Below the pieces are notes generated by a model that was not told where the DNA came from, did not search any database, and saw only the letters and a program-made list of their open reading frames with translations. A stretch of 64,000 nt of DNA from the NCBI GenBank assembly GCA_001513145.1, contig LFSP01000032.1, forward strand, positions 20,088-84,087, read 5' to 3'. Numbering within the stretch: the first letter of the stretch is position 1; every line of letters starts with the position of its first letter. Below are positions 2,932 through 47,955 of the stretch, in pieces. Position numbers and translations under genes: made by a program. This stretch comes from Clostridia bacterium DTU025 (lineage in GTDB: Bacteria > Bacillota > DTU025).

Positions 2932-2985
2932 CGCTAACTCCTTGAGGCGGGAAGGCAACAACTCAGTTCTGCACGCCCCGTCCAC

Positions 2986-3036: not shown

Positions 3037-3073
3037 CAGATCACCTCCCAAACGCGTACGCCGCAACCCGTCA

Positions 3074-3247: not shown

Positions 3248-3305
3248 CGTGAACACCTCCAAGATCGTATGGTCGCACCCCTGAAGAAGCCAAGTCAGGA
3301 GGCTG

Positions 3306-4265: not shown

Positions 4266-4491
4266 TGGCACATCCCCCAATCCAGCTGATGCCCGCGATT
4301 GTCTACAATTTAATATTACCACATAAGAGGCAAGCGAGAATTCACAAGCCAACGGTGGCAGACCATGCTCTCAGGTAGTATAATCAGGAGGGTTCCGAAG
4401 TTCCATGCGACGAAGGGGGGAACACTGGTGGACGGTGACCCAGGCAGTAGGCGCGTTGCGCCACTAGCCGCGAACCGCATAACAACTCACT

Positions 4492-5904: not shown

Positions 5905-5914
5905 GCAAGTTCGG

Positions 5915-5947
5915 GGCCGGTGCCGCGGCCATACCGCGGCACCGGCC
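5915..5947. terminator. Perfect 14-bp GC-rich hairpin, ggccggtgccgcgg-ccata-ccgcggcaccggcc, between convergent mgtE and the lipoprotein gene. Likely a bidirectional terminator with no U-tract.
   Basis: Read directly from the sequence. It lies between the mgtE stop at 5904 and the minus-strand stop at 5986. Confidence 0.5.
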
Positions 5948-5985
5948 GCCCATCGCCTTCGCCCGTCACAGCCCTCTGGCGCCGT

Positions 5986-6972
5986 TTAGTAGGCGCACGC
6001 CACTTCCTCGCTACGGAGGCTCTCCTGCCCTGATGCATCCCTCGCAACAACCACGAACCTCACCGTTGAGCCCTTCTGAGCCGCGGAAAGGCCCACCACA
6101 ACCGAGGTCTCCGGCGCCTCCACGGTGTTGCACCGGCTTGACGAGTAGCGGTCGAACTCGGAGTAGCGCCAGTACACGCGATACGAAGCCACCCACTCCT
6201 CCCCCGGATCCCACGACACCGTGGCCTTGGTGCCCTCAATGGATACCGCGACGTTCTGGGGCGGCAATGGCATCGCCGCTATGTCCAGGTGCACCTCCAG
6301 AGAGCCGAAGGCTGGAGTCCACTCTACGGTGGTGAGTTTCCCGGGCCTTATGCCGAAGGACACGTACTCGCTCTCGTACAGCACTGTGCCGTCGGTGGCC
6401 GTCACAACGACCCTCATGTCGTATGACCGCGGCACGAGCCCGGTGTCGTCCACGGCCACGAAACCTGCCTCCACCGGCAGGTCCCTATACGACCTGTAAG
6501 GGGACGTGCTGCCGGCGTAGTACACCAGCACATCGACAAAGGCGGCGTCCTCCTCGCCCGGCACGCCCAGGATGCTGATCTCCAGCCTTAGGCTACCGTC
6601 GAGGGGCTTCAACGTGAGGGCTACGGGCGTTGAGGCGTCCCTCTTCACGTTGGCCTTGGCAGTGCCGGCATACACGGCATCGCCGGCAATGTCCAATGCC
6701 GTGGCCTCGATCTGCCAGGTTCCCACGGCCAGCCCGCTGAGGGTGGCGGTGGCGGACTTGCCCTCGATGGGCACCTCCTCCACCACAGAGTAACCGCCGT
6801 TGGTGAGCATCAGGAGAACTTTCTCGAGAGGCTCCGACGCAGACGGGACGGTGCGGATGCTCGCCGCCACCACCAGGGAGCCAACACCCTCGGCCGCGCC
6901 GCTTCCCGGTAGGCAACCTGCGACGACGCAGGCCGCGGCGGCTAGAAGCATAACCAGACCTATACGTCTCAT
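5986..6972 (-). CDS. Putative lipoprotein with signal peptide MRRIGLVMLLAAAACVVAGC and an LAGC lipobox.
   Basis: I chose the start at the internal Met just before the signal peptide. The mature part is Thr/Val/Ser-rich with Ig/Fn3-like composition. Confidence 0.55.
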   Translation of the reverse strand: MRRIGLVMLLAAAACVVAGCLPGSGAAEGVGSLVVAASIRTVPSASEPLEKVLLMLTNGGYSVVEEVPIEGKSATATLSGLAVGTWQIEATALDIAGDAVYAGTAKANVKRDASTPVALTLKPLDGSLRLEISILGVPGEEDAAFVDVLVYYAGSTSPYRSYRDLPVEAGFVAVDDTGLVPRSYDMRVVVTATDGTVLYESEYVSFGIRPGKLTTVEWTPAFGSLEVHLDIAAMPLPPQNVAVSIEGTKATVSWDPGEEWVASYRVYWRYSEFDRYSSSRCNTVEAPETSVVVGLSAAQKGSTVRFVVVARDASGQESLRSEEVACAY

Positions 6973-7211
6973 GTCGCATCCTGCTCCTTCCGAATGTGAT
7001 GCCGGTTCTGTCGCCCAATCACTTCCCGCCTGGCATGGCAATTCCTGTCTTAGGTTTCAATATCACCCTGGGTGATTCGGGGGGCTGGCACGGCAGGGAC
7101 TCAAGGCTCGGCGGGCTAGGCCTCCTCGAACGGCCTGATCGCGATGGAGCTACTACTCTCTCCTGAGGCCGCCCGAACCGACGCTCGGGCTCTCCGACCT
7201 TCAACGGGAAC

Positions 7212-7240
7212 GAAAAACGCCCTGCCGATATCGACAGGGC
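7212..7240 (-). terminator. Rho-independent terminator of the tRNA operon. On the minus strand it reads gccctgtcgatatcggcagggc followed by gtttttcg.
   Basis: Hairpin followed by T5 on the transcribed strand, immediately downstream of tRNA-Glu. Confidence 0.5.
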
Positions 7241-7252
7241 GCTAAGCTTCAT

Positions 7253-7328
7253 TGGTAGCCCCGACGGAATTCGAATCCGTGTCTTCGCCTTGAGAGGGCG
7301 ACGTCCTAGGCCACTAGACCACGGGGCC
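7253..7328 (-). tRNA. tRNA-Glu (anticodon CTC), with encoded CCA.
   Basis: Reverse complement is GGCCCCGTGGTCTAGTGGCCTAGGACGTCGCCCTCTCAAGGCGAAGACACGGATTCGAATTCCGTCGGGGCTACCA. Cloverleaf: acceptor GGCCCCG/CGGGGCT, D-arm GTCT..GGAC, anticodon stem TCGCC/GGCGA with loop CTCTCAA, T-arm ACGGA-TTCGAAT-TCCGT. It closely resembles E. coli tRNA-Glu. Confidence 0.8.
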
Positions 7329-7334
7329 ACGTAT

Positions 7335-7408
7335 TGGCTGGGGAGGAAGGATTCGAACCCTCACAATCAGATCCAGAGTCTGACGTCCTACCGTTAGACG
7401 ACTCCCCA
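7335..7408 (-). tRNA. tRNA-Gln (anticodon CTG), with encoded CCA.
   Basis: Reverse complement is TGGGGAGTCGTCTAACGGTAGGACGTCAGACTCTGGATCTGATTGTGAGGGTTCGAATCCTTCCTCCCCAGCCA. Anticodon stem TCAGA/TCTGA with loop CTCTGGA, T-loop TTCGAAT. It resembles E. coli tRNA-Gln. Confidence 0.75.
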
Positions 7409-7426
7409 GCGGGGTTCGCGAAGCCT

Positions 7427-7455
7427 ATTATAGCAGAGGGCAGCCATGTTGTAAA
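7427..7455 (-). promoter_or_regulatory. Sigma-A-type promoter for the tRNA-Gln/tRNA-Glu operon. On the minus strand it reads TTTACA, a 17-nt spacer, then TATAAT.
   Basis: Consensus-like hexamers sit about 16 nt upstream of the tRNA-Gln 5' end. Confidence 0.6.
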
Positions 7456-7565
7456 CACGTTTTCGCAGCCGATTTCGAAGATTCCGCGCTCAGGTTCAGG
7501 GGGCAGGCGCCACCTGTGGCTCTGCCCCCGTCGCGCCTCCCCGGCCCGGTCTCGGCATGAGGCAA

Positions 7566-7973
7566 CTAGAATCGGGGCACGTGACCGTTGTGTATCTCCA
7601 GGCTCCAGTTAAGGCCGTAGTTGTTGTCCCAGTTGCCTGCCCGATCCTTGAAGCAGAAGTTGAGCCTGGAATCCTCGCTGGGGTCGAGTGGAACGACGGC
7701 CTTCCACACTCCGGGCTTGGCGCTCTCCATGGGAATGTCCCGCACATCGCGCCAGTCGCCGTGGCCAAACCCGGCGTGTAGGTACACCTGGTCCGCTCCG
7801 GAGCTGGCCAGTAGCCCGTTGTACTCCACCGTGACCTTCTCGCCGGCCGTGAGGGGCATCGGAGACACCGACACCCCGCCCACCAGCGAGGTTTGTTTCG
7901 CCGTGGCCCTGCTGCTCTTCTTCTTGGCCGTGCCGCCAGCCGGATCAGTGCCCAGCTTCGATGCTATTTCCAT
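7566..7973 (-). CDS. Small protein of about 136 aa with a starch/glycan-binding CBM-like domain (CBM25/26-like).
   Basis: ...VEYNGLLASSGADQVYLHAGFGHGDWRDVRDIPM...GVWKAVVPLDPSEDSRLNFCFKDRAGNWDNNYGLNWS.... I chose the start at internal MEIASK. The upstream extension of the ORF is S/T/W/R-rich and looks non-coding. Confidence 0.45.
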   Translation of the reverse strand: MEIASKLGTDPAGGTAKKKSSRATAKQTSLVGGVSVSPMPLTAGEKVTVEYNGLLASSGADQVYLHAGFGHGDWRDVRDIPMESAKPGVWKAVVPLDPSEDSRLNFCFKDRAGNWDNNYGLNWSLEIHNGHVPRF

Positions 7974-8061
7974 GTCATCCGATCTCTGTCGCCTTTGCCA
8001 TAGCACCAGGCAAGCCCCCCTTTCAGCGATAGTGTAACGCCTGCGGCGAGGGCTTATTCTG

Positions 8062-9390
8062 CTACTGTGCAAGGCTCGCCGCCCGCCGGCGGATCTCGCG
8101 AGCCACCTTTTCCGCGTCGATGGTGACCAAACACCCGTCGTCCAGCAGGATTCGCCCGTCCACCAACACGGTGCTGACGTTGAGGCCGCACGCGGAGTAG
8201 ACCAGGTGCGAGACCAGGCGCTCGGGCAAAGCCGGCTCCATGTTGGGCATGTCGAGGTCGAGAAGCACGATGTCGGCCTTTTTTCCAGGTTCAAGTGAAC
8301 CTATGGCACTTTCCAGGCGCAGGCAGCGAGCGCTTCCCATTGTAGCCATCCTCAGACACTCACCGGCAGGCAGAGCCGTGGGGTCGCCGGCGTGTACTTT
8401 CTGGAGGAGGCCGGCAAAGCGCATCTCCTCGATCATGTCGAGGTTGTTGTTGCTGGCCGCGCCGTCGGTTCCTAGGCCCACCACCACGCCCCTGGACAGC
8501 ATGGTGGGGACAGGCGCGACGCCTGAGGCAAGCTTCATGTTGGACCCTGGGTTGTGCGCCACGCGCACGTCGTGCTTGGCCATGATCTCTATGTCCTGCG
8601 CGTCCACCACGACACAGTGGGCGGCCAGCACCGGCAGCTCGAACACTCCGAGGGACTCGAAGTGCTGGATGGGGCTTTTCCCCCATTCGGCCTGCGCCTG
8701 TTGCACCTCGCGCACGGTCTCGCTGAGGTGGGTGTGCAGACAAAGCTCGGCGCGGCGGGCTTCCGCGATCACGTCTCCAATGAACTCAGGGGAACACGTG
8801 TAAGGTGCGTGCGGCGCAAGCATCGTGGTTATGCGGCCGCCTGCGGCGCCGTTCCACCGCCGGCAGAAGTCCAGAGCATCGGAGAGCTTCTGGGCGGCGT
8901 CGCCGAAAGACGTCATGCCCACCGACAGGCTCGCCCGGATGCCGGATGCGTCGACGGCCTCGGCGGCGGCGTCCATGAAGAAGTACATGTCGGCGAAGCA
9001 CGTGGTGCCGGAGCGTATCATCTCGGCGCACGCAAGCAACGTGCCCCAGTAGACGTCCTCGGCGGTGAGCTTGGCCTCCGCAGGAAAGATCATGGTGGTG
9101 AGCCATTCCTGCAGCGCCAGGTCGTCGGCGTAGCCGCGCAGCAACGTCATGGCGGCGTGGGTGTGCGCGTTCACGAGGCCAGGGATTGCCACGCGGCCCT
9201 TTCCGTGGTAGACGGGCAGGCCGGCCAGGTCGGCTGGAAGCTCGCGCGCCGGGCCTACGTACGCTATCTCGCCGCCTTGCACCGCGATGGCCGCGTCAGG
9301 GCAGACAGACCCGCGGGCGTCCATGGTGATCGCGGTTACGTCGACGATCAGGAGGTCGCCGCCTGCAGTGGTGCCGCTTTCCTTCATCAT
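8062..9390 (-). CDS. mtaD: 5-methylthioadenosine / S-adenosylhomocysteine deaminase, an amidohydrolase of the MtaD type.
   Basis: ...AIPGLVNAHTHAAMTLLRGYADD..., ...HTHLSET..., ...VAHNPGSNMKLASGVAPV..., ...GLGTDGAASNNNLDM.... Confidence 0.8.
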   Translation of the reverse strand: MMKESGTTAGGDLLIVDVTAITMDARGSVCPDAAIAVQGGEIAYVGPARELPADLAGLPVYHGKGRVAIPGLVNAHTHAAMTLLRGYADDLALQEWLTTMIFPAEAKLTAEDVYWGTLLACAEMIRSGTTCFADMYFFMDAAAEAVDASGIRASLSVGMTSFGDAAQKLSDALDFCRRWNGAAGGRITTMLAPHAPYTCSPEFIGDVIAEARRAELCLHTHLSETVREVQQAQAEWGKSPIQHFESLGVFELPVLAAHCVVVDAQDIEIMAKHDVRVAHNPGSNMKLASGVAPVPTMLSRGVVVGLGTDGAASNNNLDMIEEMRFAGLLQKVHAGDPTALPAGECLRMATMGSARCLRLESAIGSLEPGKKADIVLLDLDMPNMEPALPERLVSHLVYSACGLNVSTVLVDGRILLDDGCLVTIDAEKVAREIRRRAASLAQ

Positions 9391-29275: not shown

Positions 29276-30679
29276 TCACTTTCCAGTAATGGAGCATCCG
29301 TCAAGCAGGATATGGGGAAGCCTGTACGCGCCCAGCACCCACAGCTCGTCCGAAAGCCCCACCACCTGCGTGAGAAGCTCGTAGATGTTGCCGGCTATCA
29401 TCATCTCCTTCACCGGGTACGCCACGACGCCTCCCTCAACGTAATGGCCGCCCTTGACCACGCCGGAGAAGTCGCCGCTGGCAGGATCGACGCCGCCTGA
29501 AAACCTGTTGACGATCAGCCCGCGGTCGCACTGGGCGATGAGCTGCTCCAGGCTGTGCTTCCCTGGAGACAGCACCATGTTAGTGGTGGACACCCCCGGC
29601 AGGCCGGCATCATTCCCAGACGCCCTGCCGTTAGACTCCCTCCCGTCGCGCCGAGCCGTGTAGCAGTTGTAGAGGTAGTCCTGGAGCACCCCGCCGGTCA
29701 CCAGCTCCAGCCGCCTTGCCGGCACACCCTCGCGGTCGAACGCCGTCGACCCCGACGCCTGCGGTATGCCCGGATCGTCCACGACGCTGACCATGGGCGA
29801 CGCCACCTGCTTGCCAAGCATCCCCTTCCACTTGGACCGCCCGGTCTGCACGATCTCGGCGTTGCACGAGTAGGCTATGGGCTCCAGCACCAACTCCAGA
29901 GCGGCGTACGGCGTGAGCAGCACCTTGCCGCGGAAGCTCGGAGCGCTGCGGGCGTCCAGAGCAGCCACGACGCGCCGCGCCAGGTCCCGCCCGACTCCGA
30001 ACGCATCCACCTGGCCCAACGCGCACGACTCCGCTACCCCCAGGTCAAACGACGACACCCTGTCGCCGTCCACTGCGAACGCTATGCCCTGCGTCGAGGC
30101 CACCGTCTTGTGCTGGCTCAGCCTCACCCCGTTGGAGTTGGCCACCGTCTTCTCGCTGACCTCCGCCCTGAACATGGCGGAATCCACCGTCACCCGGCCA
30201 TCGTAGCCCAGCGCCCCCTCAAGGAACGCACCGGCCTGCTTCATCGCCCCGGCAAGGTCCATCCCGGCGATGCCCTCGTCGTACAGGCCTTCAACCGGCT
30301 CTACACCCGCCGCGCCCCTATCCGGCTGCGCCAGGCACCGCGCCGGGTCAGCCGGTGACGCCTCCGCGATGGCCATGGCGGCCGCCAGCGCGGAATCTAT
30401 CGACTCGGCCGTCAACAGGTTCGTCGAAGCGAACCCCTGCTTGAACCCGTCGTCCGATGCCATCAGAACCCTCAACCCGATGCCGCTGTACCTGTCGCCC
30501 TTTGGAACGTGGATGTCGTTCTTCTCCACCATCACCTCCACGCTCCGCGACTCCAAGTAGAAAGCTTCTACCGCCGCCGCGCCGCGCGCCAGGCCACGCT
30601 CTATGGCCAGATCGCACCAGTCGAATCCGCGGGTAACGCTCATGCTCCTTCCTCCTCCGACCTCACTGTTCTCGCTCAT
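29276..30679 (-). CDS. TldE/PmbA-family metallopeptidase subunit (pair 2).
   Basis: TldD/E-family signature without HExxxH. It overlaps the stop of the upstream TldD-like gene. Confidence 0.75.
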   Translation of the reverse strand: MSENSEVGGGRSMSVTRGFDWCDLAIERGLARGAAAVEAFYLESRSVEVMVEKNDIHVPKGDRYSGIGLRVLMASDDGFKQGFASTNLLTAESIDSALAAAMAIAEASPADPARCLAQPDRGAAGVEPVEGLYDEGIAGMDLAGAMKQAGAFLEGALGYDGRVTVDSAMFRAEVSEKTVANSNGVRLSQHKTVASTQGIAFAVDGDRVSSFDLGVAESCALGQVDAFGVGRDLARRVVAALDARSAPSFRGKVLLTPYAALELVLEPIAYSCNAEIVQTGRSKWKGMLGKQVASPMVSVVDDPGIPQASGSTAFDREGVPARRLELVTGGVLQDYLYNCYTARRDGRESNGRASGNDAGLPGVSTTNMVLSPGKHSLEQLIAQCDRGLIVNRFSGGVDPASGDFSGVVKGGHYVEGGVVAYPVKEMMIAGNIYELLTQVVGLSDELWVLGAYRLPHILLDGCSITGK

Positions 30680-32078
30680 CCTGGCGTCCTCCGATGGTCA
30701 CGCGGCAGCGCAGGTAAGGCCCGCCGGCGTCCACCTTGGCCGGCTGCCACTTGCCGCAGTGTCCGGCGCCCATGTCCAGCTTAAAGCCGCTCGAGACCGC
30801 GTCAACGCTGCTCAGCACTTCGAACGCCTGACCCGATATGGTCACGCCCTTCACCGGCTCGCACAGACGCCCGTCTCTTATCCGCCAGGCCTGCCCCACG
30901 CTGAACATGAACTCAGCGTCGGAGTCGGCTTGGCCGCCCTGGCCGAGTCCAGAGAGGAAGAAACCGTCCTCAACCTCGGATATCATGGCTTTGAGGTCAT
31001 CCTTTCCCGGGAGGATGAAGGTGTTGGTCATGCGGATCAGGGGCTCGTCCCGATACGTGAACGCCCTGGCGTTGCCCCTCGGCGCCGCGCCAAGCATGGC
31101 CGCGGACTCCCGGTTGTGCAAGTAGGCACGGAGCACGCCGTTCTCTATCAACACGGTGCGCTCGCCCTGCACGCCCTCGTCGTCCACCAGCACCATTCCA
31201 GCCGCGCCCGGCACGTTCCCGTCGTCCACCATCGTCACCAGCTCCGACGCCACGCGCTGACCGATTTTACCCTTGGCTATCGACCCTGCCAGCACGAAAT
31301 CCGCCTCAACCGTGTGCCCGATGGCCTCATGCGATAGCACCCCCACCAGACCGGGATCCAGTATCACCGTGTACTGCCCGCCCGGCGCGTACCCGGCATC
31401 CAGCTTCTCGATGGCGCCCTGGGCCGCCCTGTCCACCATCTGGTCAAGGTCGCCCTTCTCCATCAGCGCCTGCCATGACCCGGTGACTCCCCACGCCTTG
31501 ACATCCGTCTCCAGCTTGCCATCTCGCCCCGCCGTGGCGAACACGTGGATGCTCTGCTTGCTGTCGACGATGTGCGCCGCAGCGCCGTCGGTGTTCACGA
31601 TGTACTTCTCGTCGTCGTAGTGGGTGTACCTCACCACGGAGCCCACGATCAGCTCTGACCGCGACCGCAGCCGCTCTTCCGCCTCCAGCACGCGGGCTAT
31701 CTTCTCAGCGATGGAAGGCTCCGAACCCCGCTCATAGTAGACAAACTCGCCCTCGCCCATTCTGGCAGGGGCAAGCTTAGCGCGCTCCTTCTTTATCCTA
31801 GCCGCAGCAGCCGCACCATCGATGGCGTCCGCCAGCGCACTGCACAGCCCGCTCTCGGTCACATCGCTGGTGGACACGAACCCCCAGCAGCCGTCGATGA
31901 GGCATCTGACCGCGGCTCCCGCCAGAGTCCTCTGCTCGGCCTTGGCCAGGGTCCCGTTCCTCGCCTCGATGATGGTGGTCACCCTCTTGTGATACCTGAT
32001 CTCAGCGTAGCCATCTACGCCACGCAGCACCGACTTGAAGACCTCTATCATCACATCACTCCCTCTGCGCTCATACAA
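30663..32078 (-). CDS. TldD-family zinc metallopeptidase (pair 2).
   Basis: ...LSHEAIGHTVEAD... HExxxH motif and TldD-like length. Confidence 0.8.
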   Translation of the reverse strand: MYERRGSDVMIEVFKSVLRGVDGYAEIRYHKRVTTIIEARNGTLAKAEQRTLAGAAVRCLIDGCWGFVSTSDVTESGLCSALADAIDGAAAAARIKKERAKLAPARMGEGEFVYYERGSEPSIAEKIARVLEAEERLRSRSELIVGSVVRYTHYDDEKYIVNTDGAAAHIVDSKQSIHVFATAGRDGKLETDVKAWGVTGSWQALMEKGDLDQMVDRAAQGAIEKLDAGYAPGGQYTVILDPGLVGVLSHEAIGHTVEADFVLAGSIAKGKIGQRVASELVTMVDDGNVPGAAGMVLVDDEGVQGERTVLIENGVLRAYLHNRESAAMLGAAPRGNARAFTYRDEPLIRMTNTFILPGKDDLKAMISEVEDGFFLSGLGQGGQADSDAEFMFSVGQAWRIRDGRLCEPVKGVTISGQAFEVLSSVDAVSSGFKLDMGAGHCGKWQPAKVDAGGPYLRCRVTIGGRQDEREQ

Positions 32079-32268: not shown

Positions 32269-32347
32269 GTGAGCGTCAGAAAGCGGTCGCGGCGACCCAC
32301 CGGCGGGTCGAAGCCCTGCGAAAGCGACCCACCCATGGGTCGGCCCC
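32269..32347 (+). repeat. Intergenic structured repeat, copy A.
   Basis: gtgagcgtcagaaagcggtcgcggcgacccaccggcgggtcgaagccc...gcgacccacccatgggtcggcccc. Aligns with copy B and with the reverse complement of copy C. Confidence 0.7.
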
Positions 32348-32477
32348 AGCAGCAGCGGCGGTGGGAGGCGGCTCTTTCGCGCCGGCTTGACGTTCACGAT
32401 CAAACCTGCAAACTGCCAGCTCTTCATCTGCTGATAAGCAGCTGGCTGAACCTTTGCGCTCTCGAAGCCATCGCATC

Positions 32478-32507
32478 TTGACCCAACTGCCGCGGGCGGG
32501 ATATAAT
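32478..32507 (+). promoter_or_regulatory. Promoter of the imuB operon: TTGACC, 18-nt spacer, TATAAT.
   Basis: Consensus hexamers lie immediately upstream of the LexA box. Confidence 0.55.
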
Positions 32508-32510
32508 TCC

Positions 32511-32534
32511 CTTACCGAACATATGTTCGGTAAG
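32511..32534 (+). promoter_or_regulatory. LexA operator (Gram-positive Cheo/SOS box). A perfect 24-bp palindrome, cttaCCGAACATATGTTCGGtaag.
   Basis: Core CGAACATATGTTCG matches the Cheo-box consensus CGAAC-N4-GTTCG exactly. It lies 4 nt after the -10 hexamer and 30 nt before the imuB start. Confidence 0.85.
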
Positions 32535-32563
32535 GCATGGTGGTCTCGGAGGTGAAGACGCCA

Positions 32564-33766
32564 ATGCGGTACATAGCATATCTGAACCTACCCTACCTGC
32601 AATACTGCTCCAGCGTCAAGCCGGAGCAGCGCGGCCTGCCTTTGGCGGTGCTGGAGAACAACACCGTGGTCAGCATGTCGCCGGAGCTCGCGGCTCTGGG
32701 GGTGGCTCTCCGTGCCTCCCGCAGACAGGTGAAGCACGTCTGCCCCGAAGCCATGTTCGTGCAGCACGACAAGGACGCTTCCCTGCACCTGGCCAAAGGG
32801 GCATGGGACATATGCGCCGACTACACTCCCTTAGTGGAGCCCTCCGAGGTGAACTCCGCCTTCCTCGACATCACCGGATGCGGCGACGCCCGGTCCATAG
32901 TGGCGGAGCTATCCCGAAGGTGCGCCGAAACCCTGGGTTTTACGCCACACATCTGCGTCGCCCCCACCAAACTGGTGGCCAAAGCCGGCGTTCCGCCCAT
33001 AAGCTCCGAGGAGCGCGCTGCCTGGATAAGCCCTGACGAAGTCCTCGACTTTCTGGCACCGCTTCCGGTCCAGGCCCTATGGCCGCTGAGCAAGGCAACG
33101 CTGGAACACCTCTGGCGCCTTGGCGTGAACTCCGTGGCCCAGCTCAGGGCGGTGCCAGTGGAGGAGCTCATCGACCAGCTGGGCGAGGAGGGCCTGCTTG
33201 CACATCGGCTGAGCCTTGGGATCGACCACTCTAGGGTGCAGGCGGCATACCCGGAGCCGTCCGTGAGCTGCTCGTTCCGTTTCGACCAGCCGCTGGATTC
33301 CTGGGACGACATGCTCAAATGCCTGAAAATATGCGCCGCCCAGATCAGTTCCGAGCTTGACCAGGCCCAGGCGTCGACTTCCTCCGTGGAGCTGACAGTG
33401 CAGTCCGCCGGCTACGCCGACCTGGTCAAACGCCGCGCGGCCCTGCGCTCGCCCGCCAGCTCGGCCCAGGCGCTGGAAAGCGCCTTAATCAGGGCGGCCC
33501 GAGCGGCAACCCGGGCCAGCGCAAACGCGCCGGTGATCTCGCTGCACGCGCGCGCGACGAACCTGTCTATGCCAGCCGGCCTGCAGCTACGCATGTTTTG
33601 CCCCGAACTTCAGGGGCTGGCCCCGTCCGACGATGCATGCCACGCCGACGAGCTGGCCAGGGCCATCGAAAGCATCCGCCAGCGTTTCGGCGCCAAGAGC
33701 GTGCTCACCGCCGACGCCATCGTCCGCACCAGGCGCGACAGGATGATCGCCGCGTCTCTGCTGTGA
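32564..33766 (+). CDS. imuB: ImuB-like Y-family DNA polymerase paralog (SOS mutasome subunit).
   Basis: MRYIAYLNLPYL... N-terminus of DinB/ImuB type. GGAGGTG lies 9 nt upstream. It sits directly upstream of dnaE2. The ORF-track start at 32537 lacks an RBS. Confidence 0.75.
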   Translation: MRYIAYLNLPYLQYCSSVKPEQRGLPLAVLENNTVVSMSPELAALGVALRASRRQVKHVCPEAMFVQHDKDASLHLAKGAWDICADYTPLVEPSEVNSAFLDITGCGDARSIVAELSRRCAETLGFTPHICVAPTKLVAKAGVPPISSEERAAWISPDEVLDFLAPLPVQALWPLSKATLEHLWRLGVNSVAQLRAVPVEELIDQLGEEGLLAHRLSLGIDHSRVQAAYPEPSVSCSFRFDQPLDSWDDMLKCLKICAAQISSELDQAQASTSSVELTVQSAGYADLVKRRAALRSPASSAQALESALIRAARAATRASANAPVISLHARATNLSMPAGLQLRMFCPELQGLAPSDDACHADELARAIESIRQRFGAKSVLTADAIVRTRRDRMIAASLL

Positions 33767-33841
33767 GCCGCCTAGCCGCCTGGCCACAAGCTCCTTAACC
33801 TGAAGAACCCGCAAGCGCAAGTCGGAGGTCGAAGGTACATC

Positions 33842-34093
33842 GTGAGCCGAAAGGTGGAACGTCCCATAAGGGTGGAAGAGTCCACACAGGGCCCGCAGGG
33901 CCATCCTGTCAGCTTCTACTGGTCGGGGCGCTGGAACCGCGTCGACGCCGTGATCGACTCCTGGCGCGAATGCGGCGAGTGGTGGGACGGCGCGGAGGAA
34001 CACGATTACTTTCTCGTATCGTCCGGCTCCGGATGCTATGAGCTGAGCCGTACCTGCCATGGCCAGTGGGAGCTTTCAAGGATAATCGACTAG
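33842..34093 (+). CDS. Hypothetical 83-aa protein encoded between imuB and dnaE2.
   Basis: GTG start with GGAGGTCGAAGG upstream. Sequence MSRKVERPIRVEESTQGPQGHPVSFYWSGRWNRVDAVIDSWRECGEWWDGAEEHDYFLVSSGSGCYELSRTCHGQWELSRIID. It fits neatly in the gaps, 75 nt after imuB and 18 nt before dnaE2. Confidence 0.5.
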   Translation: MSRKVERPIRVEESTQGPQGHPVSFYWSGRWNRVDAVIDSWRECGEWWDGAEEHDYFLVSSGSGCYELSRTCHGQWELSRIID

Positions 34094-34111
34094 GAGCTAG
34101 GAGCCATCGCA

Positions 34112-37100
34112 ATGAGTCCAATGAGCCTGCCCGACCTTTTCGGCGGCTTCGTGCACCTGCACGTTCATTCCCAGTATTCGTTCCTCGACGGCGCCAGTCG
34201 CTGTTCCGAGCTGGTAGCCAGGTGCGCCGAGCTGGGCATGGGCGCCATGGCCATAACGGACCACGACAACGTCAGCTGCGCCGTGGAGTTCGCGCGCGCC
34301 GCGGCCGAACACGGCATCAAGCCCATCCAAGGCGTGGAGCTCACCATGGAGGGCGGCGCGCATCTCACGCTCCTTGCGGAGAACCCTGAGGGCTACGCCA
34401 ACATCTGCAACATCCTCACCGATGCGTACATGAACTCGTCTGACCGACGTCGCCCCGAAGCCCGTGTTCATACACTTGAGCGCCACAGCAAGGGCCTGAT
34501 AGCCCTGTCAGGATGCCGCCGCGGCGCCATCCCCGCCGCCATCCTTGCCCGCCAGCACGACCGGGCCATGCAGGCAGCCGAGGCGCTGGTGAAGATCTTC
34601 GGGAAGCGCAACTTCTACATAGAGCTGCAGCACCCCATGACCCCGGGAGCCGCAGCTCTCAACTCCGCCTTGATTCACCTGGCCTCCAGCCTGGGAGTGG
34701 GGGTGGTGGCCACCAACAACGTACACTATACGCACAAGTCCGGATTCGAGCTGCACGACGTGCTCACATGCATCAGAACGCTGACGACCCTCGACGACAT
34801 CCATCCCGAACGGCACATAAACGCGGAGAACTATCTGAAATCCGCAGCCCAGATGCGGGAGCTTTTCGCGCTCGTTCCCGAGGCCGTCGTCAACACCCTG
34901 GCCATCGCCGAACGGTGCAGCCCAGGCCTGAACCTCGGCCGCAAGCTGTTCCCCAAGTACGAGCCGCCCGCAGGCGAATCCCCCGCATCGCTCTTGCGCC
35001 GCCTGACCATGCAGGGCGCCGAGGCCAGGTACGGGCGAATCACCCAGGCCGTGCGCGACAGGCTCGAGCACGAGCTCAACGTCATCATCACTCTGGGCTT
35101 TGAAGGCTACTTCCTTGCAGTTCATGACATAGCGGCATGGGCCCGCGGGCGCGGGATACGATGCGCCGGACGGGGCTCCGCAGCCGACTCGGCGGTGGTG
35201 TACTGCCTGGGCCTCACCAACGTTGACCCGATCGCCCGTGGACTGCTGTTCGAGCGATTTCTGAGCCTGGAGAGGGCTCAGAGGCCCGACATCGACATCG
35301 ACTTCCAGTCCGACCGCCGCGACGAAGTGGCCGATTACGTTTACGAGCGCTACGGCCAGGGCCATGTGGCGTCCGTATGCACCTTCAACACCTTCCTCGC
35401 CCGGTCGGCTGTGCGTGACGTGGGAAAGGCCCTGGGCATCCCCGAGCCCGAGATCGACAGGCTCGCCAAGCGTCTGCCGCACATCCCCGCCGACGGCGTG
35501 CGCGCCGCCTTCTCGCGCTATCCGGAGCTCAGGGATTCAGGCATACAGCCCCATCGTTTCGAACTTCTGCTCGACCTGGTGCACCAGATGGCCGGGCTGC
35601 CACGGCACATCGGCACGCACCTGGGAGGCCTCGTGATATCCGGCGAGCCCCTCACGTGCGTCACCCCGCTTCAGATGTCCGCCAAGGGCGTGCCCATCAC
35701 GCAGTTCGACAAGGACTCCATCGAGGAGCTGGGCCTCATCAAGCTCGACCTGCTGTCGTTGCGCACCCTCTGCGCCGTGGAACGCGCCCAGGAGCTCATA
35801 AAGGCCCCGGAGTTCAGCTACGACCGCATCCCCCACGACGACGCCGCCACCTATTCCATGCTGCAGTCCGGCGAGACCATAGGCGTCTTCCAGCTGGAAA
35901 GCCCCGCCCAGCGGGCCCTGCAGCCGCGGCTCAAGGCGGATTCCTTCGAGGACATCGTGGCCAGCGTGGCGCTGATAAGGCCGGGCCCCATCAAAGGCAA
36001 CATGGTGGAGCCCTTCGTGGCCAGGCGTCGCGGCAAGGAGGAGGTCAGCTACGTCGACCCGCGCCTCGAGCCCATCCTCAAGAAGACCTACGGCGTCGTG
36101 TTATACCAGGAGCAGGTGATCCAGATAGCCACCGCTATCGCTGGATTCAGCCCTGGAGAATCCGACAGGCTCCGCAAGGTGATGACCCACTGCCGCTCAA
36201 TGGTGGAAATGGAGGCCATAGGCCGCGACTTCGTGGCCAAGGCCATGGCAAACGGCACCGACAAGGAGACAGCCGAAACCATATTCTCCTACATCGTGGG
36301 CTACGCGGGCTACGGGTTCTGCGAGGCCCACGCGGCCGCCTTCGCCGACACGGCATACCGCACCGCCTACCTGTGCAGGCATTTCCCGGCGGAGTTCTTC
36401 GCGGCCCTCTTAAGCGCCCAGCCCATGGGCTTCTACCCGCCGCGCACCCTGATCGTGGAGGCGCGCCGACGCGGGGTAAGAGTGCTGCCGCTTGACGTCA
36501 ACGCCAGCAAGCACAGGTATACGGTGGAGAACGGGGCCATAAGGGTTGGACTAATGCAGGTGAAAGGGATATCCGCCTCCGACATACAGAGCATAGAGGA
36601 CGCCCAGGCCAGCGGCCCATTCACCTCAGCCGCCGACTTCGCCGCCCGCACCGATGTGCCCGTGGACGTCTTCGAGAACCTGGCGCTGGCAGGGGCCTTC
36701 GATTCCATCGAGCCCAACCGACGAGCCGTGGTGTGGGCTGTAAGGCGCCTTGCCAGCTCCTCCGCCGCAGCCAGGAAGCTCAGCTCAGAGGCGGAGGCCG
36801 CAGGGCAGATGCGCCTTTCCGGCCTTGAAGACGGTGCCTCCCTCAAGGCCCACGTCGCGGAGGCCTCCAGGAGCATCCGAGACTTCACCCCCATCCAGAG
36901 TTTCGCCGCCGAGACGGAGATCCTGGGATTCTGCGTGCATAAGCACGCCATGGAGTTCTACCGCTCCTCCCTGGCCAGATGGGGGGCGCTCACGGCATCG
37001 GAGATCGCCCAGGCCAAGCCGGGGCAACTGGTGAGGGCGGCCGGCCTCGTCGTGCGCCCGCACCGGCCGCCCACCAAGAGCGGCCGCACCGTGGTCTTCC

Positions 37101-37333
37101 TGTCGCTGGAAGACGAGACCGGCCTCACAGACGTGACGGTGTTCGAAAGCGAGTACCAAAAATACGGCGCCGCCATATTCGGCAGCGCGGCCTTGCTGGT
37201 GGAGGGCACGGTATGCGACAGGGGCGGAGCGGTGTCAATCACGGCAAAGAGGATCCGCCCTTTTCGGGGTCGACGAGGGCACGCGTCTCCTCGCCAACCA
37301 TCGGCCAGTACCGACCGAGAAGCATGTCGGTGA
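34112..37333 (+). CDS. dnaE2: Error-prone DNA polymerase DnaE2 (ImuC).
   Basis: Intact PHP start FVHLHVHSQYSFLDGASRCSELVARCAELGMGAMAITDHDN..., ...DIDIDF..., a C-terminal OB fold, and an operon position behind LexA-box/imuB. Confidence 0.85.
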   Translation: MSPMSLPDLFGGFVHLHVHSQYSFLDGASRCSELVARCAELGMGAMAITDHDNVSCAVEFARAAAEHGIKPIQGVELTMEGGAHLTLLAENPEGYANICNILTDAYMNSSDRRRPEARVHTLERHSKGLIALSGCRRGAIPAAILARQHDRAMQAAEALVKIFGKRNFYIELQHPMTPGAAALNSALIHLASSLGVGVVATNNVHYTHKSGFELHDVLTCIRTLTTLDDIHPERHINAENYLKSAAQMRELFALVPEAVVNTLAIAERCSPGLNLGRKLFPKYEPPAGESPASLLRRLTMQGAEARYGRITQAVRDRLEHELNVIITLGFEGYFLAVHDIAAWARGRGIRCAGRGSAADSAVVYCLGLTNVDPIARGLLFERFLSLERAQRPDIDIDFQSDRRDEVADYVYERYGQGHVASVCTFNTFLARSAVRDVGKALGIPEPEIDRLAKRLPHIPADGVRAAFSRYPELRDSGIQPHRFELLLDLVHQMAGLPRHIGTHLGGLVISGEPLTCVTPLQMSAKGVPITQFDKDSIEELGLIKLDLLSLRTLCAVERAQELIKAPEFSYDRIPHDDAATYSMLQSGETIGVFQLESPAQRALQPRLKADSFEDIVASVALIRPGPIKGNMVEPFVARRRGKEEVSYVDPRLEPILKKTYGVVLYQEQVIQIATAIAGFSPGESDRLRKVMTHCRSMVEMEAIGRDFVAKAMANGTDKETAETIFSYIVGYAGYGFCEAHAAAFADTAYRTAYLCRHFPAEFFAALLSAQPMGFYPPRTLIVEARRRGVRVLPLDVNASKHRYTVENGAIRVGLMQVKGISASDIQSIEDAQASGPFTSAADFAARTDVPVDVFENLALAGAFDSIEPNRRAVVWAVRRLASSSAAARKLSSEAEAAGQMRLSGLEDGASLKAHVAEASRSIRDFTPIQSFAAETEILGFCVHKHAMEFYRSSLARWGALTASEIAQAKPGQLVRAAGLVVRPHRPPTKSGRTVVFLSLEDETGLTDVTVFESEYQKYGAAIFGSAALLVEGTVCDRGGAVSITAKRIRPFRGRRGHASPRQPSASTDREACR

Positions 37334-37904
37334 GGTCTGCGTGGAACCGCTCAAGCTCCGGCGCGGGCACCAACACCCGGATGGTCGCAGTCTCCAAGTA
37401 ATCGACGCCCAGAACAGAGTATCCCCTGGAGGCCAGGTAGCTCTGGACCTTGCCCACCGCCGGGTAGTCCACGACGAAGCTGACCTCGTGCGCAGGCACC
37501 ACCCGGGCGATTCCGGCTGCATGTAGCGCCTCCCTGGCGGCGGCGCCATATGCCCTCACCAGCCCGCCGGCGCCCAGAAGCGTTCCGCCGAAATACCTGG
37601 TCACCACCACGGCGCAGTGCTTTATGCCCTCCTTCAAGATCACCTCAAGCACCGGCCGGCCGGCGGTGCCCGAAGGCTCGCCGTCGTCGCTGGAGCGGAC
37701 GATCTCATCGTTGTCTCCCACCGTGAAGGCGTACACGTTGTGCGTGGCGTCCCAGAACTCCCGTCTGATCTCATCGACGAACTGCTGGGCCTCGGCCTCA
37801 TCCTTCACTGGGCTCGCGGTGGCTATGAATCGGCTGCGCTTCACCACCGTTTCCGTTCTGGCTCTCTGCCGGATGACCAGGTAATCCCGCGCCACTTGCA
37901 CCAT
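37239..37904 (-). CDS. yigZ: YigZ/IMPACT-family protein (UPF0029).
   Basis: ...RSRFIATASPV...HNVYAF..., ...DDGEPSGTAGRPVLEVI..., ...AVVVTRYFGGTLLGAGGLVRAY.... Confidence 0.75.
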   Translation of the reverse strand: MVQVARDYLVIRQRARTETVVKRSRFIATASPVKDEAEAQQFVDEIRREFWDATHNVYAFTVGDNDEIVRSSDDGEPSGTAGRPVLEVILKEGIKHCAVVVTRYFGGTLLGAGGLVRAYGAAAREALHAAGIARVVPAHEVSFVVDYPAVGKVQSYLASRGYSVLGVDYLETATIRVLVPAPELERFHADLTDMLLGRYWPMVGEETRALVDPEKGGSSLP

Positions 37905-42267: not shown

Positions 42268-42930
42268 CTATAGGGTCCCTCCGGAGACGAAGATCGTTTC
42301 GGCCTTCCACCCTGTAACGTTCGTGAGCAGCGGGACTCCCATGGGCCGGTACTCCAGCACCAGGGGGTTGTTGATGTTGTTCCAGACGGTGAACTGCCCA
42401 CCGCCGCACACGAAGGCAGGCAGGTACATCCTGTTGCCGTTGATCTCCACAGGGTAGAGTATCTCCTCTTCCACCTTAAGGTCGCCTGCGAACAGGCCTG
42501 ACAGGTTCCACCCTCCTGTGCGGAAGTTGTATGCCACCTTGCCTGTGCGCAGTTCCCTGATGACCTCCCGTGACACCCACGGGGCCGTCCAGTCCGTCTC
42601 GTCGGGATCGCCGAGGCCAAACACCGGGCCGAAGGTCCGGCTCTTTTCGAGCCCGGTCAGGAGCCTCACCGTGGAGGCAGGGAGCGACCCGTCTGTGCGC
42701 GGCCGCACCCACGAGATCCTGACCGTTCGCGGGTAATCGGCGCTGAGCACCGTCACCCTCCATTCCAGTTCAGTGACGGTCCTGGCCACGATCCTCTTGA
42801 AGACCACGTGCATGCCGGCGCTTATCGCCGGCTCGGCCCTGAGGATCTCGTATTCAGCCTGGGCTGCAGCGTTGAACGATGGTCCGGTGCCCGCCGCCAC
42901 GGCGATGAGCAGGATCGCCAACAAAGACAT
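42268..42930 (-). CDS. Hypothetical secreted protein with a signal peptide.
   Basis: MSLLAILLIAVAAGTGPSFNAAAQA signal peptide. No recognisable family. Confidence 0.45.
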   Translation of the reverse strand: MSLLAILLIAVAAGTGPSFNAAAQAEYEILRAEPAISAGMHVVFKRIVARTVTELEWRVTVLSADYPRTVRISWVRPRTDGSLPASTVRLLTGLEKSRTFGPVFGLGDPDETDWTAPWVSREVIRELRTGKVAYNFRTGGWNLSGLFAGDLKVEEEILYPVEINGNRMYLPAFVCGGGQFTVWNNINNPLVLEYRPMGVPLLTNVTGWKAETIFVSGGTL

Positions 42931-42974
42931 AACCCTTATTGCCTGAGCAAGAGTAGCTCGCTTCAACTGGAACG

Positions 42975-44597
42975 TCACCTCTCGTATACGAACTCCCCGT
43001 TGACCATGGTAGCGTCGATCTCGGTACTCAGGAGATCGGGCATGGGCAGTGCGAAGATGTCGGTGGACAGTATCGTCAGGTCAGCGAAAGCGCCGGGCAC
43101 CAGCGTGGACCGGCGGGAGCCGGAGGGCAGGCCCGCGGCGGCCACTGCGCCCACGGTGTAGCCGCGCAGGGTCTCCTCCAGGGTGAGGCGCTCCTCCGGA
43201 TACCAAGCTCGCTCCGAGTCGGAGTCTGGTTGCCGGCGCATCACGGCTGCGTACATCCCTCTCAGCGGGTGCGGGGTCTCCACCGGGGCGTCGGAGCCGA
43301 AGGCCAGCACCGTTCCTGATCTCAGCAGGCTCTTGAAGGCATATGCCCACCGGCTACGGCCTCCCCAGTGCTTATCCGCCGCGGGGATATCCCCCAGCAC
43401 GTGCACTGGCTGCATCGATGCCACCACGCCCAGGTCTGCGAACCTGCGGAGGTCGTTGGGGTGCAGCACCTGTGCGTGCTCGATCCGGTGAGTGAGGCCC
43501 CTGGCGATGCTGTCTTCCCTGACAGACTCGAAGATGTCGAGCACATCTCGGTTGGCCCTGTCTCCAATGGCATGGATCGCGCAGGCGATGTTGTTCAGCA
43601 CCGCCCTGCCCACCAGCCTGCCCAGCTCCTCCCTGGGGGTCACCTCGATGCCGGTGTAATCCTCGGTTCCCTCATACGGCTTGAGCATGTGGGCCGTTCG
43701 GGAGCCAAGCGAGCCGTCGGCAAAGGCCTTCATATGGCCTATGACCAGCCATTCGTCGCCGAACCCGCTTGAGAGGCCCAGGTCGATGGCGGCGTCAAGG
43801 TCGGCGGCGGGTATCGCCTGCACCACCCTGAGCCTGAGCTTGCCGTCGCGCCTCATCTGCTGGATCGCGGCGAAGGCTCGGCCGCCGTCCATGTTGTGGA
43901 TGCACCCGATGCCCATGCTGTGCAGCGCCGCCTGGGCTCGCACCAGCGCCTCCACGAGCTGCGCCTGTGTGGGCTCGGGGATCACCTTCATCACCAGCTG
44001 GGCAGCGGTCTCGTTCAGTAGCCCGGTGGCCTGGCGCGTTTCAGGGTCCCTTACGATGCGCCCGCCTTCAGGGTCGGGTGTGTCAATACCTATCCTGGCC
44101 AGGCGCAGCGCCGCCGTGTTCACCCACAGCGCGTGCAGGTCCTTGCACCAGACGGCAACAGGGGTGTGCGGGGCCACGGCGTCCAGGTAAGACCTGTCGG
44201 GCACCTTGCCCTCGGGCCACGCGTGGGCGTTCCATCCCACGCCGGTTATCCAGGCACCGGGAGGCGTGTTGGTGACTGCCTTAGCCACCAGTTCGGCGAC
44301 GTCCTCGGGTCCGGAGGTGCCGGTGAGGTCCAGGCCCATCATGCTCAGCGCGTAGTGCATGAGATGGATGTGAGAATCAGTGAACGCCGGCAGCAGCGTC
44401 CTGCCGGAAATATCAATGCGGACGAAGGTGTCGTCTACGATGGACTCCAGGTCCTCCTCGGTGCCGGCGGCCAGAACGCGCCGGCCGGCCACAGCCAAGG
44501 CGGAGCAGAACGGCCGCGCCGACGAGGCAGTGTACACCCGTCCCCCATGGAAATAGTATTTGGCCAATACAGTCGCCTCCCAGAGCCAAGGCTTCAC
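42975..44597 (-). CDS. Amidohydrolase-family protein (Amidohydro_3/YtcJ-like metal-dependent hydrolase).
   Basis: ...FTDSHIHLMHYA..., about 540 aa, ...GSDAPVE... near the C-terminus. Confidence 0.7.
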   Translation of the reverse strand: MKPWLWEATVLAKYYFHGGRVYTASSARPFCSALAVAGRRVLAAGTEEDLESIVDDTFVRIDISGRTLLPAFTDSHIHLMHYALSMMGLDLTGTSGPEDVAELVAKAVTNTPPGAWITGVGWNAHAWPEGKVPDRSYLDAVAPHTPVAVWCKDLHALWVNTAALRLARIGIDTPDPEGGRIVRDPETRQATGLLNETAAQLVMKVIPEPTQAQLVEALVRAQAALHSMGIGCIHNMDGGRAFAAIQQMRRDGKLRLRVVQAIPAADLDAAIDLGLSSGFGDEWLVIGHMKAFADGSLGSRTAHMLKPYEGTEDYTGIEVTPREELGRLVGRAVLNNIACAIHAIGDRANRDVLDIFESVREDSIARGLTHRIEHAQVLHPNDLRRFADLGVVASMQPVHVLGDIPAADKHWGGRSRWAYAFKSLLRSGTVLAFGSDAPVETPHPLRGMYAAVMRRQPDSDSERAWYPEERLTLEETLRGYTVGAVAAAGLPSGSRRSTLVPGAFADLTILSTDIFALPMPDLLSTEIDATMVNGEFVYER

Positions 44598-47815: not shown

Positions 47816-47878
47816 GGCCGGCAGGGCCAGTCAAGCTGCTGCGGCCCGTCGGGCCAGAGCCTGCCTGCGCCGTGGCTG

Positions 47879-47955
47879 GCGCGGCCGACCCATGGGTAGG
47901 TCGTTCTGGCTGAAAACCGACCAGCCGGTGGGTCGGCGCGACCGCAAAGCCACCC
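47879..47955 (-). repeat. Intergenic structured repeat, copy C, in reverse orientation. Probably the terminator of the rplM-rpsI operon.
   Basis: Its reverse complement, gcggtcgcgccgacccaccggctggtcggttttc...cgacctacccatgggtcggcc, aligns with copies A and B. Confidence 0.7.

Follow-up and report, generated by a model that had tools for sequence, protein, structure and literature searches.

What kind of mutasome is encoded by a cassette in which a Y-family gene and dnaE2 stand behind a LexA-like palindrome and imuA is missing? The question is raised by a locus in a 64,000-nucleotide (nt) stretch of contig LFSP01000032.1 from Clostridia bacterium DTU025 (the whole stretch is hereafter the window, and all positions refer to it), where a promoter, a palindrome and three plus-strand genes lie between 32478 and 37333. 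An earlier note on this DNA described the genes as imuB, an 83-amino-acid (aa) open reading frame (ORF) and dnaE2, and treated the missing imuA as an oddity of the canonical imuA-imuB-dnaE2 cassette. Its absence is instead a defining trait of a known variant, ImuY/iPolY-ImuB-C-DnaE2 (PMC6511836, PMC12926913, PMC8072749). We conclude, with good confidence for the identity and less for the details, that the locus is a LexA-box-controlled operon of a split-ImuB mutasome of the ImuY(iPolY)-ImuB-C-DnaE2 (DnaE2X) type and that it is part of the core chromosome in a high-GC, uncultured member of the Bacillota.

Cassettes of this type were described computationally in 2013, 2019 and 2026 (Timinskas and Venclovas, Nucleic Acids Research 2019, PMC6511836; Nucleic Acids Research 2026, PMC12926913). 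That ImuB-C is a domain which also occurs alone was recognized by Aravind and colleagues in 2013, a work cited in PMC6511836. Table S4 of the 2019 survey lists Syntrophothermus lipocalidus, Thermaerobacter, Alicyclobacillus and Deinococcus deserti with the gene order iPolY, ImuB-C, DnaE2; imuA is absent from the operon and the genome in this cassette type, and RecA was proposed as a substitute that acts via a RecA-NT motif (PMC6511836). The 2026 survey named the polymerase group DnaE2X and described iPolY plus ImuB-C as "a split ImuB" that may be ancestral to ImuA-ImuB-DnaE2 (PMC12926913).

The three cassette genes

The first gene (32564-33766, plus strand, 400 aa) matches the Pfam families IMS and IMS_C. 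Its start at ATG 32564 is backed by a GGAGG ribosome-binding site 10 nt upstream (32549-32553, plus strand) and by homologs that begin at the aligned methionine, and an alternative ATG at 32537 given by the ORF lister is probably unused. When compared with the NCBIfam models, the protein stayed below the cut-off of every Pol IV and UmuC family (best Pol IV score 128 bits versus 367), so that a canonical DinB/Pol IV, the outcome that the earlier note had wished to see checked, was not found. An alignment with DinB and ImuB proteins revealed that motif I, HVDMDAFY in DinB, has become AYLNLP--Y with a 2-residue deletion, and that motif III, SLDEAFLD in DinB, reads SEVNSAFLD with DE replaced by NS. 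All three catalytic carboxylates (Asp, Asp and Glu) are thereby lost. Both active-site changes persist as inactive variants across the clade, with the motif III Asp still kept in some members. Judged by these residues, the product is a catalytically inactive Y-family scaffold.

Searching 5.8 billion proteins returned only five close relatives of this gene product (46-100% identity, all metagenomic), below which came DinB-like proteins at ∼115 bits and ImuB proteins at only ∼50 bits. The clade profile gave its best matches to Pol IV structures (7yll at E 6e-44). The protein has an FLDITGC signature in common with ImuB proteins; it lacks a fused DUF6504 domain and the long C-terminal region of ImuB, ending after a RecA-NT-like helix and a short tail. 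The description of the gene as ImuB-like thus held for a dead Y-family scaffold but not for a canonical ImuB, given the length of 400 aa without the long C-terminal region, the ranking of DinB-like matches above ImuB proteins, and the preference for Pol IV structures. By BLASTP, the protein is weakly similar to published iPolY proteins (Sphaerobacter, E 4e-10) and closer to them than to Pseudomonas aeruginosa ImuB.

Three C-terminal elements of this protein are of functional interest. A candidate beta-clamp-binding motif, QLRMF (residues 341-345; 33584-33598, plus strand), has its Q, L, M and F invariant in the clade, and its Gln aligns with the clamp-motif Gln of DinB and ImuB homologs, suggesting that it may bind the beta clamp. 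Farther along lies the candidate RecA-NT-like helix (residues 357-382, ...DELARAIESIRQRFGAKSVLT; 33632-33709, plus strand). Comparison of the iPolY profile with Escherichia coli RecA by hhalign yielded a single match, of iPolY residues 357-382 with RecA residues 4-29 (31% identity, E 0.02, probability 2.4%), and the segment aligns with the motif tabulated for the S. lipocalidus iPolY (Table S4, PMC6511836). The protein ends with a conserved tail, RRDRMIAASLL (33731-33763, plus strand), in which R390 to A397 are invariant among five clade members that are 52-59% identical overall; the clade consensus is RRDRMIAAS(M/L)L. By analogy with UmuC, the tail of which binds UmuD' (PMC6511836), this segment may be a docking site for ImuB-C.

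The second gene (33842-34093, plus strand, GTG start) encodes the 83-aa protein. The earlier note had listed it simply as an ORF; the ORF is real, but it is not anonymous, matching the DUF6504/ImuB-C family (Pfam PF20114) with 31.2 bits against a cut-off of 24.2, and the "ImuB" of this cassette is consequently split into two genes. An exhaustive HMMER search with the window ImuB-C recovered 222 representatives; among the 150 best listed, nearly all were ∼80 aa in length, and NCBI labels such homologs "DUF6504 family protein". The sequence could be aligned with the C-terminal region of canonical ImuB proteins, and hhalign matched it to the C-terminus of a 522-aa ImuB-type protein with IMS and DUF6504 domains (E 3.3e-5, probability 72%). 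BLASTP against published ImuB-C proteins gave E 5e-12 for both D. deserti and Kyrpidia tusciae, and the window protein is closer to these counterparts than to P. aeruginosa ImuB. AlphaFold2, supplied with 69 sequences, produced an all-beta model of eight strands (predicted local distance difference test score of 89). When this model was compared with the PDB by Foldseek, no significant neighbor was found (best E 0.66), and a PDB sequence search with the ImuB-C profile found no solved relative; ImuB-C has been described as a beta-barrel with a novel fold (PMC12926913). In all relatives, a DUF6504 gene of ∼80 aa lies between the Y-family gene and dnaE2. One further candidate, the second-best ImuB-C match (P0083, metagenomic, 2534 aa, 31 matching stretches), was dropped as a low-complexity tandem-repeat translation that bears no relation to ImuB-C, with units such as HTQYMMIWSPTTQPLHG and THNTWWSGVQQHN; the case illustrates that summed repeat scores are able to inflate E-values.

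The third gene (34112-37333, plus strand) encodes an error-prone C-family DNA polymerase of 1073 aa. Its proposed identity as DnaE2 agreed with the family models: NCBIfam NF004225 ("error-prone DNA polymerase") gave 950 bits, passing the cut-off of 939 by a small margin, and the DnaE equivalog NF004226 gave 971.5 bits, under its cut-off of 1002. The domains follow the order PHP, pol3 alpha, finger, HhH and OB, and only 23 of the 1073 residues remain beyond the OB fold, which ends at residue 1050; there is no C-terminal tau-binding domain, a region that is missing in every DnaE2 (PMC3919608). The polymerase aspartates are kept (PDIDID at residue 392 and the Asp of LDLL). The PHP motif had been called intact, but mapping onto Taq Pol III alpha gave the signature HHDHEHCNH, with 8 of 9 residues retained and Asn203 (codon 34718-34720) at the position of Taq D212. 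Most Bacillota relatives have this nine-residue signature. The Asn itself was present in 17 of the 19 Bacillota-type homologs checked and in DnaE2X proteins published from Sphaerobacter and Dehalogenimonas, whereas Kyrpidia has kept the Asp and lost other PHP residues. The exchange gives the impression of one conserved, inactivating substitution and not of random decay. By the criteria of the 2026 survey, such a PHP site counts as inactivated, which is the norm for DnaE2 (PMC12926913).

The group membership of the polymerase was examined by BLASTP with its N-terminal 410 aa. Identities were 51% to the Kyrpidia DnaE2X and 49% to that of Alicyclobacillus (353-390 bits), compared to 32-39% (186-237 bits) for four DnaE2A proteins; three other DnaE2X proteins scored 113-261 bits. 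In this comparison, which covered DnaE2X and DnaE2A sequences, the window protein is a probable member of the DnaE2X group and not of DnaE2A, an assignment supported by its 55% identity to the DnaE2 of S. lipocalidus, whose cassette is listed in Table S4 (PMC6511836). Homologs at 55-66% identity are abundant in metagenome-assembled genomes (MAGs) of Bacillota, and those inspected, including that in the complete S. lipocalidus genome, were all preceded by an IMS protein of ∼400 aa and a DUF6504 protein of ∼81 aa. At its 3' end, dnaE2 overlaps by 95 nt with a convergent gene of the Impact_N/YigZ family (37239-37904, minus strand), the terminator-like hairpin of which (37188-37167) falls within the dnaE2 coding sequence; an overlap of 70-112 nt is kept in most relatives and is not found in loci L008 and L010.

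Promoter and putative LexA operator

The cassette is preceded by a promoter-like sequence with the -35 hexamer TTGACC at 32478-32483 (plus strand) and, after an 18-nt spacer, the -10 hexamer TATAAT at 32502-32507 (plus strand), just as the earlier note had proposed upstream of its Cheo-box core. This pair matches at 11 of 12 positions and is the best sigma-70-like match between 32000 and 38000. A perfect palindrome, CCTTACCGAACAT followed by ATGTTCGGTAAGG, occupies 32510-32535 (strandless) and covers the predicted transcription start. The palindrome and its exact core were thus correctly recognized, but the length is 26 bp rather than 24, and the element is separated by 2 nt from the -10 hexamer and by 28 nt from ATG 32564. 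Its core, CGAACATATGTTCG at 32516-32529, begins 9 nt past the -10 hexamer and matches the experimentally derived Bacillus subtilis LexA consensus, CGAACATATGTTCG, at 14 of 14 positions (PMC8270828); the Firmicutes LexA footprint TACGAACATATGTTCGTA is fitted as well (PMC2248561). The scan for additional CGAAC-N4-GTTCG sites that the earlier note had suggested, carried out on the 64-kb window, gave no second exact match; shuffled sequences yielded an expectation of 0.04, with any match in 4 of 100. Sites with one mismatch numbered four in the window and were not enriched (a total of 5 sites versus 1.96 expected, a count reached by 5 of 100 shuffles).

Conservation of this region follows the regulatory elements. 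Among close relatives, the -35 hexamer (TTGAC being invariant), the -10 hexamer and CCGAACATATGTTC are unchanged and equally spaced while the rest of the upstream regions has diverged. The TATAAT is invariant in six aligned upstream regions, and all three elements were found again in loci L007, L009 and L010. In S. lipocalidus, the elements recur with one mismatch; it has TATAAA at the -10 position, and CGAACATATGTTTG. Each of the ten related loci keeps a GAAC-N4-GTTC box. Conservation does not extend to the outer arms of the palindrome, which read GTTCTATA in relatives and GTTCGGTAAGG in the window, and this restriction to the core favors a protein-binding operator over an RNA hairpin. By analogy with the characterized sites, we consider the core to be a putative Bacillota LexA (Cheo/DinR) box at the promoter.

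About 110 nt upstream of this promoter lies one copy of an 87-nt imperfect-palindromic element (32283-32369). The other copy (47859-47945), in opposite orientation and 77% identical, is located between an ORF with an NAGPA domain and rplM; both are intergenic. Folding gives a long hairpin (CGACCCACCGGCGGGTCG ... CGACCCACCCATGGGTCG), for which the z-scores were -0.8 to -2.7. The element had no Rfam match and was not found in the upstream regions of the relatives; it could be a repeat of the repetitive extragenic palindromic type.

Absence of imuA, alternative readings and proposed mechanism

The statement that the cassette encodes no imuA agreed with what we observed. Upstream of the operator is the divergent tldD/pmbA pair, downstream is the convergent Impact_N/YigZ gene, and no RecA-like match was obtained in the window. 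Pfam and NCBIfam scans of 43 ORFs, including the cassette genes (some 20 short ORFs, located at 1-14 kb and at 55-64 kb, lie outside this set), identified no gene for an ImuA/RecA-fold protein or an S24 peptidase. The 236-aa ORF at 42268-42978, considered as a hidden ImuA, matched no Pfam or NCBIfam family and was set aside. The flanks of the related loci, on either side of the cassette, likewise contained no ImuA/RecA-like gene.

A canonical imuA-imuB-dnaE2 cassette that had lost or relocated imuA would present a similar picture, with the first gene as an ordinary ImuB, the 83-aa ORF as an unrelated gene and ImuA encoded elsewhere. Some bacteria do have separate imuA and imuB-dnaE2 layouts (PMC3919608), the view of this genome is limited to 64 kb, and the FLDITGC signature is common to the first gene product and ImuB proteins. 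We nevertheless regard this scenario as improbable because the 83-aa protein is itself the ImuB C-terminal domain, the first gene lacks that domain and scores higher with DinB than with ImuB, the DnaE2 probably groups with DnaE2X rather than with the ImuA/ImuB-associated DnaE2A, and the surveys encountered imuA nowhere in genomes with this cassette type (PMC6511836, PMC12926913). A decaying locus, in which nonsense mutations have recently broken a full-length imuB and left a pseudogene remnant, is barely credible, even though the first gene and the ImuB-C gene are in frame with each other and nothing but TGA 33764, TAG 33773 and 75 nt comes between them. The split is kept in relatives down to 46% (iPolY) and 30% (ImuB-C) identity; the spacing among these loci varies between a 4-nt overlap and the 816 nt of L009, so the frames differ. 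The ImuB-C gene has a start codon of its own at a conserved MSRK N-terminus, stand-alone homologs are nearly all ∼80 aa among the 150 best listed, and third-position GC content is 0.76-0.83 in all three cassette genes, like that of their neighbors. Furthermore, the related loci, at 52-59% identity, are not assembly copies of one sequence. The two stops, the 75-nt gap and the variable spacing in relatives indicate that the split is ancestral and not the product of a recent nonsense mutation, and the two stops together with the variable gaps and frames also rule out the ImuB-C gene as a continuation of the first gene beyond one stop (by read-through, selenocysteine insertion or sequencing error).

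The pairing could also be fortuitous, with an active DinB/Pol IV encoded by chance next to a replicative DnaE1/DnaE3 subunit. The best NCBIfam and PDB matches of the first gene are indeed Pol IV, NCBI calls many homologs of the third gene "DNA polymerase III subunit alpha", and the third gene product scores 971.5 bits with the DnaE equivalog model. We find this very hard to accept, however, since the catalytic Asp, Asp and Glu are replaced and motif I carries the 2-residue deletion, the Pol IV scores reach about one third of the cut-offs, the polymerase passes the error-prone cut-off and fails that for DnaE, the tau-binding domain is missing as in every DnaE2 (PMC3919608), and the gene stands behind a LexA box along with ImuB-C. 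As for the palindrome, it could serve a different dimeric regulator as operator or form a hairpin in the 5' untranslated region; no lexA was seen in the window, and 26 bp exceeds the 14-bp Cheo box. This reading has little to recommend it against the 14/14 fit of the core to the B. subtilis consensus and the finding that relatives keep only CCGAACATATGTTC and differ in the arms, as expected for a 14-16-bp protein site and not for an RNA stem. With the predicted transcription start inside the left arm, a full hairpin would not be transcribed, and the downstream genes are classic SOS mutagenesis genes that are under LexA/RecA control in Deinococcus (PMC8072749). A variant concerning only the origin of the first gene is doubtful but deserves mention: its Y-family scaffold may stem from a DinB-type polymerase, by an independent and relatively recent inactivation followed by recruitment to ImuB-C and DnaE2, rather than from the ImuB lineage. 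This idea is based on the motif III Asp in some clade members and on a score versus Pol IV that is twice that versus ImuB. If it applies, the RRDRMIAAS tail would be a lineage-specific docking peptide for a free ImuB-C barrel, and the cassette would be a naturally occurring intermediate on the way to ImuB as a fusion of PolY and ImuB-C, or a convergent repeat of that evolution.

The analysis of the sequences establishes what the genes are, that the Y-family catalytic residues are gone, that ImuB is split and that promoter and operator are conserved. With the split-ImuB mutasome as the preferred reading, a mechanism can be proposed in which LexA binding, co-transcription, the contacts between the proteins and the mutagenic output are taken from the literature or from analogy. 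In the absence of damage, a LexA dimer would occupy CGAACATATGTTCG over the predicted transcription start and block RNA polymerase. Damage would lead to RecA filaments and LexA self-cleavage, upon which the three genes would be transcribed together. The dead Y-family protein would then act as a scaffold that attaches to the beta clamp through QLRMF, and its RecA-N-terminus-like helix might recruit host RecA instead of the absent ImuA. The 83-aa ImuB-C beta-barrel would bridge the scaffold and the PHP domain of DnaE2, probably being attached to the former via the invariant RRDRMIAAS tail; in AlphaFold models of the Mycobacterium tuberculosis ImuA-ImuB-DnaE2 mutasome, ImuB-C is placed on the DnaE2 PHP domain (PMC12926913). 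DnaE2, with an intact polymerase site, no tau-binding domain and the Asp-to-Asn exchange in PHP, would carry out error-prone lesion bypass. Mutagenic output has a precedent in D. deserti and Deinococcus ficus, in which imuY and dnaE2 are required for ultraviolet-induced mutagenesis and the operon is RecA/LexA-controlled (PMC8072749).

Several observations weigh against this reading or parts of it. The proposed regulator and partner are not encoded in the window, where tblastn with E. coli RecA and LexA gave E > 0.9, and the absence of imuA pertains to the 64-kb window and the flanks of the related loci, not to the whole genome. The first gene product is only 19-25% identical to published iPolY proteins, so that orthology of that component is not firm. 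Statistical support for the resemblance between its helix and the RecA N-terminus is weak (E 0.02 and a probability of 2.4% in hhalign), and the Pfam model DUF4113 (RecA-NT) did not match the iPolY tail even at E 10. Strict co-transcription is assumed, given the 75-nt gap between the first two genes and the 816 nt in L009.

Relation to known systems and genomic setting

The window cassette has the same gene order as those of K. tusciae, Alicyclobacillus acidocaldarius, Thermaerobacter marianensis and S. lipocalidus, namely an inactive Y-family protein, an ImuB-C of ∼80 aa and DnaE2, and these systems also lack imuA. The window ImuB-C is 31-32% identical to theirs (E down to 5e-12), and the candidate RecA-NT-like helix lies at the position tabulated for the motif of the S. 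lipocalidus iPolY. In contrast, the iPolY proteins of Kyrpidia and Syntrophothermus end in W-rich tails (WDPW), whereas the RRDRMIAAS(M/L)L of the window is lineage-specific; the host lineage is uncultured and has "Firmicutes bacterium UBA1393" and ADurb.Bin506 among its relatives. The conserved promoter and Cheo box of the Firmicute members are not reported in the portions of PMC6511836 and PMC12926913 that we read.

Deinococcus has the same three genes in the same order, again without ImuA and under SOS (RecA/LexA) control (PMC8072749), and the ImuB-C of D. deserti is 33% identical to that of the window (E 5e-12). The two systems differ in other respects. The Deinococcus cassette is carried on a plasmid and its operon begins with lexA, whereas no lexA lies near the window cassette, which shows conserved chromosomal synteny: tldD/pmbA precede it, and yigZ, an alaX-like gene and an ABC-2 transporter follow downstream. 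Identity between the DnaE2 of D. deserti, which has a degenerate PHP domain, and that of the window is only 30%, and the window operator is a Bacillota Cheo box.

When compared with the canonical ImuA-ImuB-DnaE2 systems of M. tuberculosis, Caulobacter, Pseudomonas and Myxococcus, the window cassette has in common a dead Y-family scaffold with a clamp motif, ImuB-C, a catalytic DnaE2 and, as predicted for the window, LexA control, and overall the two probably work alike. The canonical ImuB (about 470-550 aa) carries ImuB-C as a fusion, whereas the first gene here encodes 400 aa without it. In addition, the window lacks ImuA (host RecA being the proposed replacement), possesses a probable DnaE2X instead of DnaE2A (32-39% identity), and has a Y-family part nearer to DinB. 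Related modules are reused without ImuA, as in the window, in two other kinds of SOS-linked operon: the lexA-imuB-C-polY operons of Geobacter type, with an active PolY and no DnaE2, and the DinB2-DnaE2 pairs of Streptomyces, in which PolY is inactive and DnaE2 is present but ImuB-C is lacking (PMC6511836). All three modules occur in the window.

The system type has already been published, and our finding mainly confirms and extends known biology. New here are an iPolY clade that is very divergent and has a conserved tail of its own, a conserved promoter and Cheo-box footprint for the Bacillota members, and evidence that Bacillota MAGs commonly encode DnaE2 of this type. DnaE2 was formerly considered rare in PolC-containing Firmicutes. 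The locus adds a chromosomal, vertically inherited, ImuA-less split-ImuB mutasome from an uncultured high-GC member of the Bacillota, the closest relatives of which are named from anaerobic digesters. From the conservation of the promoter and Cheo box, it can be predicted, in a form open to testing, that the LexA regulon of these organisms includes the split mutasome. With scaffold, adaptor and polymerase as separate proteins, the system would be convenient for mapping ImuB-C contacts, which are also at issue in the clinically relevant mycobacterial mutasome.

The three-gene order was found in ten related loci, corresponding to about eight distinct cassettes after near-identical contigs were merged and including that of S. 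lipocalidus. Among close relatives of the iPolY, the neighborhood consists of divergent tldD/pmbA, the iPolY-DUF6504-DnaE2 genes, convergent Impact_N/YigZ, an AlaX-like gene and an ABC-2 transporter. The same arrangement is present in the GTDB genome "Firmicutes bacterium UBA1393"; a scan of GTDB genomes with the iPolY profile matched one genome, and the taxonomic placement is based on it and on the names of MAG proteins. The GC content of the cassette equals that of its flanks, and the rplM-truA-ecf-rplQ-rpoA-rpsD-rpsK cluster is ∼11 kb away, which together argue for the core chromosome rather than an island. Within the cassette, no plus-strand terminator-like site was found between the three genes.

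The tldD/pmbA metallopeptidase pair (29276-32078, minus strand) is arranged in tandem directly upstream of the imu promoter, in accordance with the divergent tldD reported in the earlier note. Its adjacency to the cassette is kept in L001, L004, L005 and L007 and absent in L008 to L010, and is probably mere synteny. L001 has 1.8 kb between tldD and the imu promoter (2503-4333, equivalent to L002 1-1582) with internal repeats of ∼50 nt, and L009 has an 807-nt spacer between iPolY and ImuB-C (4995-5801) with a GC content of 0.54 versus 0.60. These gene-free stretches of L009 and L001/L002 contained no ORFs with homologs, and Rfam found nothing in the spacers of L001 and L009.

Elsewhere in the window, ORFs 82-741, 763-1887, 1936-2937, 3306-4352, 5986-7041 and 7566-8294 (within positions 1-8300) had no NCBIfam match. 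The 236-aa ORF at 42268-42978 lies on the minus strand, has a high third-position GC content and encodes a conserved hypothetical protein; an unannotated gene of similar size occupies the same place in L009 and L010, between an amidohydrolase gene and the ABC-2 transporter operon. The only Rfam matches in the window were two tRNAs, tRNA-Glu(CTC) and tRNA-Gln(CTG), which are located at 7253-7408 on the minus strand.

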